64,000 nucleotides of DNA from Escherichia coli (GTDB taxonomy: Bacteria > Pseudomonadota > Gammaproteobacteria > Enterobacterales > Enterobacteriaceae). Position 1 is the stretch's first letter; the number at the start of each line of letters is the position of its first letter. The stretch is from the NCBI RefSeq assembly GCF_017348835.2, contig NZ_CP071375.1; one strand, given 5' to 3'. The position numbers were made by a program. Below are positions 62,301 to 64,000 of the stretch, piece after piece.

Positions 62301-64000
62301 AGAAGTTGATATGGGGACTGATACTAAAAAATATGCCGGCAAAGAACGCGCCAATAGCATAGCCAAAAGATCCCCAGGCGCGCGCTGTTCCATATTCGAA
62401 ATGAAAATTTCGCGCCATTTTTTCGGTGAAGCTGTCAAGCAAACCGCATCCCGCCAGATACCCCAAGCCAAAAAAGAGCGCCCCCAGAATTAGACCTACA
62501 GAAAAATTGCTTTGCAGTAACGGTTCATAAACGTAAATCATAAACGGTCCGGTCAAGACCAGGATGAAACTCATACACCAGATGAGCGGTTTCTTCAGAC
62601 CGAGTTTATCCTGAACGATGCCGTAGAACATCATAAATAGAATGCTGGTAAACTGGTTGACCGAATAAAGTGTACCTAATTCCGTCCCTGTCAACCCTAG
62701 ATGTCCTTTCAGCCAAATAGCGTATAACGACCACCACAGCGACCAGGAAATAAAAAAGAGAAATGAGTAACTGGATGCAAAACGATAGTACGCATTTCTG
62801 AATGGAATATTCAGTGCCATAATTACCTGCCTGTCGTTAAAAAATTCACGTCCTATTTAGAGATAAGAGCGACTTCGCCGTTTACTTCTCACTATTCCAG
62901 TTCTTGTCGACATGGCAGCGCTGTCATTGCCCCTTTCGCCGTTACTGCAAGCGCTCCGCAACGTTGAGCGAGATCGATAATTCGTCGCATTTCTCTCTCA
63001 TCTGTAGATAATCCCGTAGAGGACAGACCTGTGAGTAACCCGGCAACGAACGCATCTCCCGCCCCCGTGCTATCGACACAATTCACAGACATTCCAGCAA
63101 AATGAACCGCCCCGGAAATCCTGGAGACTAAACTCCCTGAGAAAGAGGTAAACAGGATGACTAAAAATACTCGTTTTTCCCCCGAAGTCCGTCAGCGGGC
63201 GATTCGTATGGTTCTGGAAAGTCAGGATGAATATGACTCACAGTGGGCGGCAATTTGTTCCATTGCCCCAAAGATTGGCTGTACGCCGGAGACTCTGCGT
63301 GTCTGGGTTCGCCAGCATGAGCGGGATACCGGGAGTGGTGATGGTGGACTCACCACCGCTGAACGTCAGCGTCTGAAAGAGCTGGAACGTGAAAATCGTG
63401 AACTGCGCCGCAGTAACGATATCCTTCGCCAGGCTTCCGCTTATTTTGCGAAGGCGGAGTTCGACCGCCTCTGGAAAAAATAATGCCACTGCTGGATAAG
63501 CTGCGTGAGCAGTACGGGGTCGGACCGGTATGCAGCGAACTGCATATTGCCCCGTCAACGTATTACCATTGTCAGCAACAGCGACATCATCCGGATAAAC
63601 GCAGTGCCCGTGCGCAGCACGATGACTGGCTGAAGAAAGAGATACAGCGCGTATACGATGAAAATCACCAGGTATACGGTGTGCGTAAAGTCTGGCGTCA
63701 GTTGTTACGGGAAGGTATCAGAGTGGCCAGATGCACTGTGGCACGTCTCATGGCAGTTATGGGACTTGCCGGTGTTCTCCGGGGTAAAAAGGTCCGCACT
63801 ACCGTCAGCCGGAAAGCCGTTGCCGCATGCGACCGCGTAAACCGTCAGTTCGTGGCAGAACGTCCAGACCAGTTGTGGGTGGCTGATTTTACCTGGGTAA
63901 GCACATGGCAGGGCTTCGTTTATGTGGCGTTCATCATTGATGTGTTCGCCGGATACATCGTGGGATGGCAGGTCTCATCATCCATGGAAACAACATTCGT

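Follow-up and report, generated by a model that had tools for sequence, protein, structure and literature searches.

Organization of the Locus

The window, a 64,000-nucleotide stretch of Escherichia coli DNA, ends inside an insertion sequence that interrupts a sugar kinase gene of the csc sucrose locus. Positions 63103–64000 are the left 898 nt of an IS3-family element of 1310 bp, and the left end, TGAACCGCCCC, begins at 63103 as read from the sequence. The interrupted gene, the left end of the element, and its coding regions are arranged as follows, with positions counted along the window.

62892–63102, minus strand: 3′ fragment of the interrupted gene, which encodes a cscK-like PfkB sugar kinase (PF00294 positions 249–300 of 302)
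63100–63102, no strand assigned: left copy of the 3-bp target-site duplication, AAA (flanks at PE164 locus L001: ...CAGCAAAA, the element, AAATGG)
63103–63127, plus strand: left terminal inverted repeat (IRL), TGAACCGCCCCGGAAATCCTGGAGA, pairing with the right repeat at L001 5989–6013
63145–63148, plus strand: putative Shine-Dalgarno-like GAGG, 8 nt before the orfA ATG, from a reading of the sequence
63157–63483, plus strand: orfA, 108 aa, a helix-turn-helix DNA-binding protein ending ...DRLWKK (ORF list; PF01527 HTH_Tnp_1, E 2.9e-12)
63417–63483, plus strand: overlap of 67 nt in which the orfA and −1 frames are both open (−1 frame translation; last upstream stop TAA at 63414–63416)
63483–64000, plus strand: orfB, from its ATG in a TAATG overlap to the end of the window (PF13276, PF00665)
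63885–63887, plus strand: codon for the first catalytic Asp, D244 of OrfAB, in WVADFT (motif positions on the full fusion protein)

The right end lies beyond the window, and completeness is read from a matching genome, that of E. coli PE164. A 1601-nt query spanning the junction (62400–64000) matches the PE164 chromosome NZ_CP114128.1 at 100% and in a single piece. There, the full-length element occupies L001 4704–6013 (1310 bp), and a chance match is not an issue because the 898 nt of the window are 100% identical to the left part of this complete copy in a public genome. PE164 was isolated from a pig.

At the PE164 locus, the terminal inverted repeats are 25 nt long and 22/25 (88%) complementary, of the form TGAACC...GGTTCA, with 1260 nt between the arms. 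The trinucleotide AAA is present on both flanks of the element, giving a 3-bp target duplication whose boundary is ambiguous by one base owing to the A-run at the insertion point. Removal of the insertion sequence and one AAA restores a 300-nt empty site that is 100% identical to intact kinase genes, and this reconstructed site is found in 2639 genomes at a coverage of at least 80%.

The earlier note had called the region an IS3-family element and had tied its completeness to a right inverted repeat within about 1.3 kb, to an orfB frame that stays open past the window, and to a target-site duplication. The family assignment is borne out by a match of 367.7 bits (cut-off 160) to the NF033516 transpos_IS3 profile (an equivalog) that takes in positions 1–369 of 369, together with TG...CA repeats, a length inside the roughly 1.2–1.55 kb of IS3-family elements, the 3-bp duplication, and orfA and orfB in phases 0/−1. 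In PE164, the right repeat stands 1260 nt after the left one, orfB runs 370 nt further to its stop, and the AAA duplication is found on both sides.

Probable Membership in the IS629/IS1203/IS3411 Group

At the DNA level, an IS629/IS1203-type copy (L002) from a set of species-representative genomes shares 98.8% identity with the element. Proteins under the NCBI name "IS3-like element IS1203 family transposase" are 97–98% identical to its protein, which falls in a 90% cluster with members named "IS629 transposase OrfB". The name IS629/IS1203 is thus assigned by proxy, from NCBI-named copies and clusters rather than from an ISfinder reference. By the ISfinder convention, isoforms share more than 90% nucleotide or more than 95% amino acid identity with the reference, and the identities found here very probably place the element among the isoforms of IS629. 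IS1203 and IS3411 are themselves IS629 isoforms, the subtypes of IS629 differ by 4–5%, and IS629 duplications are 3–4 bp (Rump et al. 2011, PMC3271280).

The element resembles IS629/IS1203/IS3411 in its length of 1310 bp, its 25-nt imperfect repeats starting TGAACCGCCCCGG, its 3-bp duplication, its OrfA of 108 aa and OrfB of 295 aa, and a pseudoknot of the apical loop–internal loop (ALIL) type described for IS3411. The orfA stop is TAA, unlike the TGA of the closest IS629/IS1203-type copies (L002, L022, and L037); the differences from the group are only at the isoform level. Of 3382 plasmid records with a match, 39 have this variant as their best match, at an identity of at least 99%, and 2477 match best at 95–99%. 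NCBI annotation labels the variant with the generic "IS3 family transposase" and not with "IS1203 family". A homologue search with the fusion protein returned near-identical E. coli copies only, with identities of 89–100% among the 120 scored matches listed. Membership in the IS481 family was considered and ruled out, as NF033577 gives 81 bits against a cut-off of 224.

Insertion Site and Genome Context

The interrupted gene is annotated in RefSeq as "PfkB family carbohydrate kinase, incomplete", with its N-terminal part on the other side of the insertion sequence, and its uninterrupted counterpart is named "aminoimidazole riboside kinase" (a cscK-like PfkB kinase). The sucrose permease gene follows downstream on the minus strand; on the opposite side are cscA and a LacI-type regulator, and a tRNA-Arg gene adjoins the locus. 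A polar effect of the insertion on the sucrose permease gene is plausible from this arrangement.

A 120-nt probe finds the exact junction in 1 of 5426 complete genomes, that of PE164. The PE164 chromosome holds 31 matching places for the element, and further copies lie on a PE164 plasmid. The unique junction and the 31 chromosomal matches suggest recent activity. The insertion can serve as a strain-specific marker and has little importance beyond correct annotation: the end of the window is annotatable as an intact IS629-type copy disrupting a kinase gene of the sucrose locus.

Matches in O157:H7 genomes had been candidates for the same insertion. They were rejected, being two-piece matches that span about 80 nt more than the query. 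In eight O157:H7 genomes, the cscK-like gene carries IS629-type insertions that are independent of the one in PE164.

The Reading Frames and the Predicted Fusion Transposase

The orfA stop, TAA, is at 63481–63483, and the exact OrfA protein occurs in public records on 483 contigs. The orfB ATG at 63483–63485 lies in the −1 frame (63157 mod 3 = 1; 63483 mod 3 = 0), and the frame is open to 64000. The layout described in the earlier note, with orfA ending ...LWKK-TAA, an A6 run at 63475–63480, and an orfB ATG in the −1 frame that shares the A of the stop, is present exactly as described. The −1 frame is already open from 63417, and therefore the overlap measures 67 nt and the A6 run is merely its final part.

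The full orfB encodes 295 aa and ends at the equivalent of window position 64370; the exact protein is in public records. Separate synthesis of OrfB may start from the ATG that overlaps the orfA stop. This ATG is missing in a Mixta element present in at least 10 copies and in L021 and L027 (TAGCCC / TAGCGC), so a separate OrfB start at the overlap is not a conserved need. A simple scan of 62950–63300 found no sigma-70-like promoter or terminator.

The domains of the fusion protein are PF01527 (HTH_Tnp_1), PF13276 (HTH_21), PF00665 (rve), and PF13683 and PF13333 (the pair rve_2 and rve_3). The rve domain spans residues 235–331. The catalytic triad is D244, D303, and E339, with 35 residues between the second Asp and the Glu, and D303 and E339 are encoded beyond the window.

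A frameshift at the U-run described below would yield a fusion of 404 aa, which appears verbatim in NCBI records as "IS3 family transposase", a record that reflects an annotation rule and not a measurement. The fusion formed at A6 (...LWKK-IMPLL...) was not found in the public protein collection. With NF033516, the U-run fusion scores 367.7 bits against 362.9 for the A6 fusion, a gap of 4.8 bits that is weak evidence alone.

The ALIL Pseudoknot

Downstream of the U-run, the orfA message is predicted to fold into a known frameshift-stimulating structure. Its parts, and the two candidate slippage sites near it, are these.

63438–63554, plus strand: ALIL frameshift-stimulating pseudoknot, RF01497 (120.3 bits against a gathering threshold of 50, E 1.9e-32, full length, model positions 1–117)
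63444–63448, plus strand: slippery motif U_UUU_G, zero frame UAU UUU GCG, with tRNA-Phe re-pairing from UUU to UUU (Rfam ALIL 5′ end, conservation)
63453–63469, plus strand: stem-loop 1, GGCGG / AGUUCGA / CCGCC (Rfam structure line; minimum free energy and centroid folds)
63459–63464, plus strand: apical-loop segment GUUCGA in stem-loop 1, supplying the 5′ half of the loop–loop helix and pairing with UCGGAC at 63520–63525
63475–63480, plus strand: A6 run, zero frame AAA AAA and then UAA, at best a secondary −1 site (sequence)
63515–63554, plus strand: stem-loop 2, with the internal loop UCGGAC at 63520–63525 (Rfam structure, fold, pair counts)

RefSeq annotates the same feature as "AL1L pseudoknot". 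Rfam's ALIL model opens at its 5′ end with a strongly conserved UAUUUUG. The arrangement of two hairpins has been described for IS3411 and at least 27 other insertion sequences, with published gaps between the hairpins of 44–104 nt in ALIL-type signals (Atkins et al. review, PMC5009743); the gap between stem-loop 1 and stem-loop 2 here is 45 nt.

Pairing is kept among relatives. In an alignment of 13 sequences, 87% of cells are paired, against 35–46% when the partners are slid by 1–3 columns; as the alignment holds few independent lineages, these counts support the structure without proving it. In stem-loop 1, 96.9% of cells are paired in relatives. The loop–loop helix has 6 bp, including one G–U, with 94.9% of cells paired across the 13 sequences and one compensatory exchange of UA and CG. 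The minimum free energy fold of 63438–63560 is modestly better than those of shuffled sequences (z = −1.99), from a nested-structure predictor that cannot show the loop–loop helix. Because the predictor is blind to that helix, the case for the pseudoknot depends on the match to the covariance model and on the pair counts.

The Probable Site of Frameshifting

The earlier note had placed a likely programmed −1 frameshift at the A6 run. Programmed −1 frameshifting is itself very probable; the position is not supported, and the best support falls on U_UUU_G at 63444–63448, which is most likely the main site as judged from spacing and conservation. This motif is 31 nt upstream of A6. Stem 1 starts at 63452 or 63453, 4–5 nt after U_UUU_G, and the stimulatory structures of IS3-family elements begin 4–10 nt after the slippery motif (Sharma et al. 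2014, PMC4066793). Stem 1 is already passed at the A6 run, which lies on its 3′ side, and stem-loop 2 is still about 35 nt away; for this reason the pseudoknot cannot act on a ribosome at A6. As a shift site, A6 has no properly spaced stimulator, it is broken or absent in three relatives, and its fusion is missing from the collection, whereas the fusion in NCBI records is the one made at the U-run. Among E. coli tetramers, U_UU.U also outranks A_AA.A (PMC4066793), which favours the U-run.

Relatives of the element were compared in a scan of one genome per species, which gave 45 related loci; an ALIL match above threshold is present in 14 of the 20 loci scanned with Rfam. All 12 Enterobacterales sequences in alignment A1, which have 77–99% overall identity to the element, keep UAUUUUG unchanged, as does every Enterobacterales copy from a pattern scan. 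The synonymous third positions of UAU and UUU are both kept in these relatives. The A-run is kept in most close Enterobacterales relatives; it is broken in a Yersinia copy (L025, AAGAAA) and in an Enterobacter copy (L027, AAAAAG), and it is absent in L038, a distant relative from an actinomycete, where U_UUC stands immediately ahead of stem 1 instead. The Rfam ALIL consensus is variable at the A-run position. Conservation of the A-run is weak evidence in any case, because coding in two frames constrains the run.

An A-run at the overlap of the two reading frames looks like the obvious site, and it is not the best-supported one here. Slippage at the A-run beside the orfA stop (AAAAAAUAA) is probably weak and secondary. 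In IS629, Chen and Hu (2006) reportedly obtained −1 frameshifting from TTTTG and from AAAAT alike, with fusion products that both matter and that cooperate. Calling the A6 run weak may understate its role because of that reported result. An annotation should put the frameshift at the U-run that precedes the pseudoknot and not at the A-run adjoining the stop.

Taken with the identity and completeness of the element, the reading preferred here takes the region as the left two-thirds of an intact copy, 1310 bp long, of the IS629/IS1203/IS3411 group, the subgroup with the ALIL pseudoknot, in a cscK-like kinase gene, with the main shift at the U-run (probability about 0.8). Earlier work has described the element and its family, pseudoknot, and behaviour in E. 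coli.

Alternative Explanations

The A6 run at 63475–63480 could instead be the main or sole −1 site, with tRNA-Lys slipping on AAA while UAA occupies the A site to give ...LWKK-IMPLL.... The run is within the overlap, and the −1 frame continues from it. In E. coli, tetramers rank by efficiency as A_AA.G >> U_UU.C > U_UU.U > ... > A_AA.A, and A_AA.A is recognised, though weak, and well represented in IS3 and IS1 elements (Sharma et al. 2014, PMC4066793). A stop codon next to the run can, on general grounds, slow decoding. In the related copy L020, a TGA closes the −1 frame at a point between UUUUG and the A-run; this copy is either dead or dependent on an A-run shift for a full fusion. Chen and Hu also reportedly found that AAAAT works as a −1 signal in IS629. 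Against this stand the lack of any structure 4–10 nt downstream of A6, the breaks in L025 and L027 and the absence in L038 while the U-run motif is kept before stem 1, the missing fusion protein in the collection, and the variable Rfam consensus, which together leave A6 an unlikely main site. Likewise doubtful is a combined reading in which two −1 sites work and the A-run site, followed here by UAA where the closest IS629/IS1203-type copies have UGA, gives the two fusion proteins in another ratio. If true, the altered ratio would change transposition activity and help to explain the high copy number in PE164. A related reading, that repeated independent IS629-type insertions in the cscK-like gene reflect selection or a regional hotspot, seems doubtful too.

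OrfA and OrfB might be made separately, without recoding, OrfB by translational coupling at TAATG, with OrfB alone as the transposase. The sequence does have the TAATG overlap, many records annotate the 295-aa OrfB as a protein of its own, and PMC5771124, citing Chen & Hu, reports that IS629 OrfB exists and lowers transposition. However, OrfB alone would lack the N-terminal helix-turn-helix that recognises the ends, the ATG is missing in the multi-copy Mixta relative, L021, and L027, and a conserved frameshift pseudoknot would be purposeless; OrfAB is the transposase in the IS3 family, in a copy-out-paste-in scheme (bioRxiv 10.1101/2023.06.07.543989). Such a reading is very improbable. Slippage of RNA polymerase on A6/T6, deleting one A from the mRNA and so yielding the fusion, is scarcely credible: homopolymeric A runs can cause slippage that some insertion sequences use (PMC5009743), but six A residues are few where the known cases are said to use longer runs, the run is not conserved, and the conserved RNA pseudoknot after the U-run points to a ribosomal mechanism. 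That the copy is an inactive relic whose signals serve nothing is quite improbable as well. The window holds just part of the element, many genomic copies of insertion sequences have decayed, and the simple scan of 62950–63300 gave no sigma-70-like promoter; yet the PE164 copy has both reading frames open, an intact DDE triad, both repeats, and the duplication, and its junction is unique to one genome that carries 31 chromosomal matches and plasmid copies.

Proposed Mechanism

With the main shift at the U-run, expression of the transposase would proceed as follows. By its sequence, orfA encodes a small helix-turn-helix DNA-binding protein, and orfB, in the −1 frame, the DDE catalytic domain. 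A minority of the ribosomes translating orfA would slip back by one base at U_UUU_G (63444–63448), as the signals, their conservation, and the literature on isoforms indicate. The ALIL pseudoknot, held together by pairing between the apical loop of the first hairpin and the internal loop of the second, would stimulate this slip. The product would be the 404-aa OrfA-OrfB fusion transposase, which, as in the family at large, probably binds the TG...CA repeats and transposes the element by a copy-out-paste-in route with a circular intermediate. Transposition would leave a 3-bp duplication such as that present at the insertion. By analogy with related elements, the separate OrfA and OrfB may act as modulators (PMC5771124).

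Likeness to Other Frameshift Systems

The element is like IS3 and IS911 in having orfA and orfB in phases 0/−1, an OrfAB fusion, predicted for the element here, formed by −1 frameshifting, a DDE core, TG...CA ends, and duplications of 3–4 bp. The signals differ. IS911 uses an A_AAA_AAG heptamer with an upstream Shine-Dalgarno sequence and a three-way-junction structure, and IS3 uses A_AAG with an H-type pseudoknot, whereas the element here has a U_UUU tetramer and a two-hairpin pseudoknot formed between an apical and an internal loop. A comparable loop–loop interaction is found in Barley yellow dwarf virus and related plant viruses, where the first hairpin pairs through an internal bulge with an apical loop several kilobases distant. 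In the element here, by contrast, it is the apical loop of hairpin 1 that pairs with the internal loop of hairpin 2, just 45 nt away.

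Insertion into the sucrose locus

Within the sucrose (csc) locus, the insertion of the IS629/IS1203-type element cuts the cscK-like PfkB kinase gene in two (window 62892-63102 and beyond; positions 4493-6720 of L001, the matching locus in E. coli PE164). The element is oriented opposite to both the kinase and the permease genes of the locus. The latter is found downstream of the kinase break, and the insertion may exert a polar effect on it:

61573-62820, minus strand, sucrose permease gene

In eight O157:H7 genomes, IS1203 has inserted independently in the same kinase gene, approximately 80 bp away, so the gene has been struck repeatedly by IS629-type elements. 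These genomes were matched with a 120-nt probe of the element junction (window 63043-63162), and their matches fall into two pieces that span 200 nt. An insertion hotspot or selection may be responsible for the repeated hits. The csc locus directly adjoins a gene for tRNA-Arg and a short fragment of a DUF4942 gene (L001 2658-3094; window roughly 61057-61493), an arrangement typical of islands that have integrated at tRNA genes.

Frameshift region and transposase length among relatives

The stop codon of orfA is TAA in the window isoform (63481-63483), whereas TGA occupies this position in the closest IS629/IS1203-type copies (L002, L022, and L037). The difference is a single base, immediately 3' of the A6 run at 63475-63480. 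In the Mixta mediterraneensis copies (L007-L017), orfA closes with TAG and the next three bases are CCC, so the element is without an orfB start codon at the overlap. A different change is seen in L020 (positions 877-943), a copy from an assembly labelled Martelella alba, where a C-to-U substitution in the apical loop of stem-loop 1 (GAGTTTGACC) introduces a -1-frame TGA between the probable U_UUU_G frameshift site and the A6 run. The product of a shift at U_UUU_G would therefore stop after six codons, and the copy is either dead or dependent on the A6 run.

Some E. coli records hold transposase versions of 430-436 amino acids (P0031, P0033, and P0040; 89-91% identity), exceeding the 404-residue OrfA-OrfB fusion by 26-32 residues. 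The extra length could come from another start, another frameshift join, or an insertion.

Copies in other genomes

The M. mediterraneensis relative, 80% identical, is present in at least 10 copies in one genome, and this copy number suggests recent activity. IS629-type copies with protein identities of 93-100% are also found, mostly on very short contigs, in assemblies labelled Clostridia, Clostridiaceae, Acinetobacter idrijaensis, Terrisporobacter, Oscillibacter, Ruminococcaceae, and Lachnospiraceae (L002, L003, L004, L019, L040, L042, and L043). Contaminating or mis-binned E. coli DNA is the likely source of these copies. The Enterobacter asburiae genome has a sok antitoxin RNA (RF01794, 110 bits; L006 1941-2108) just downstream of its IS copy, and this suggests a hok/sok context of plasmid origin.
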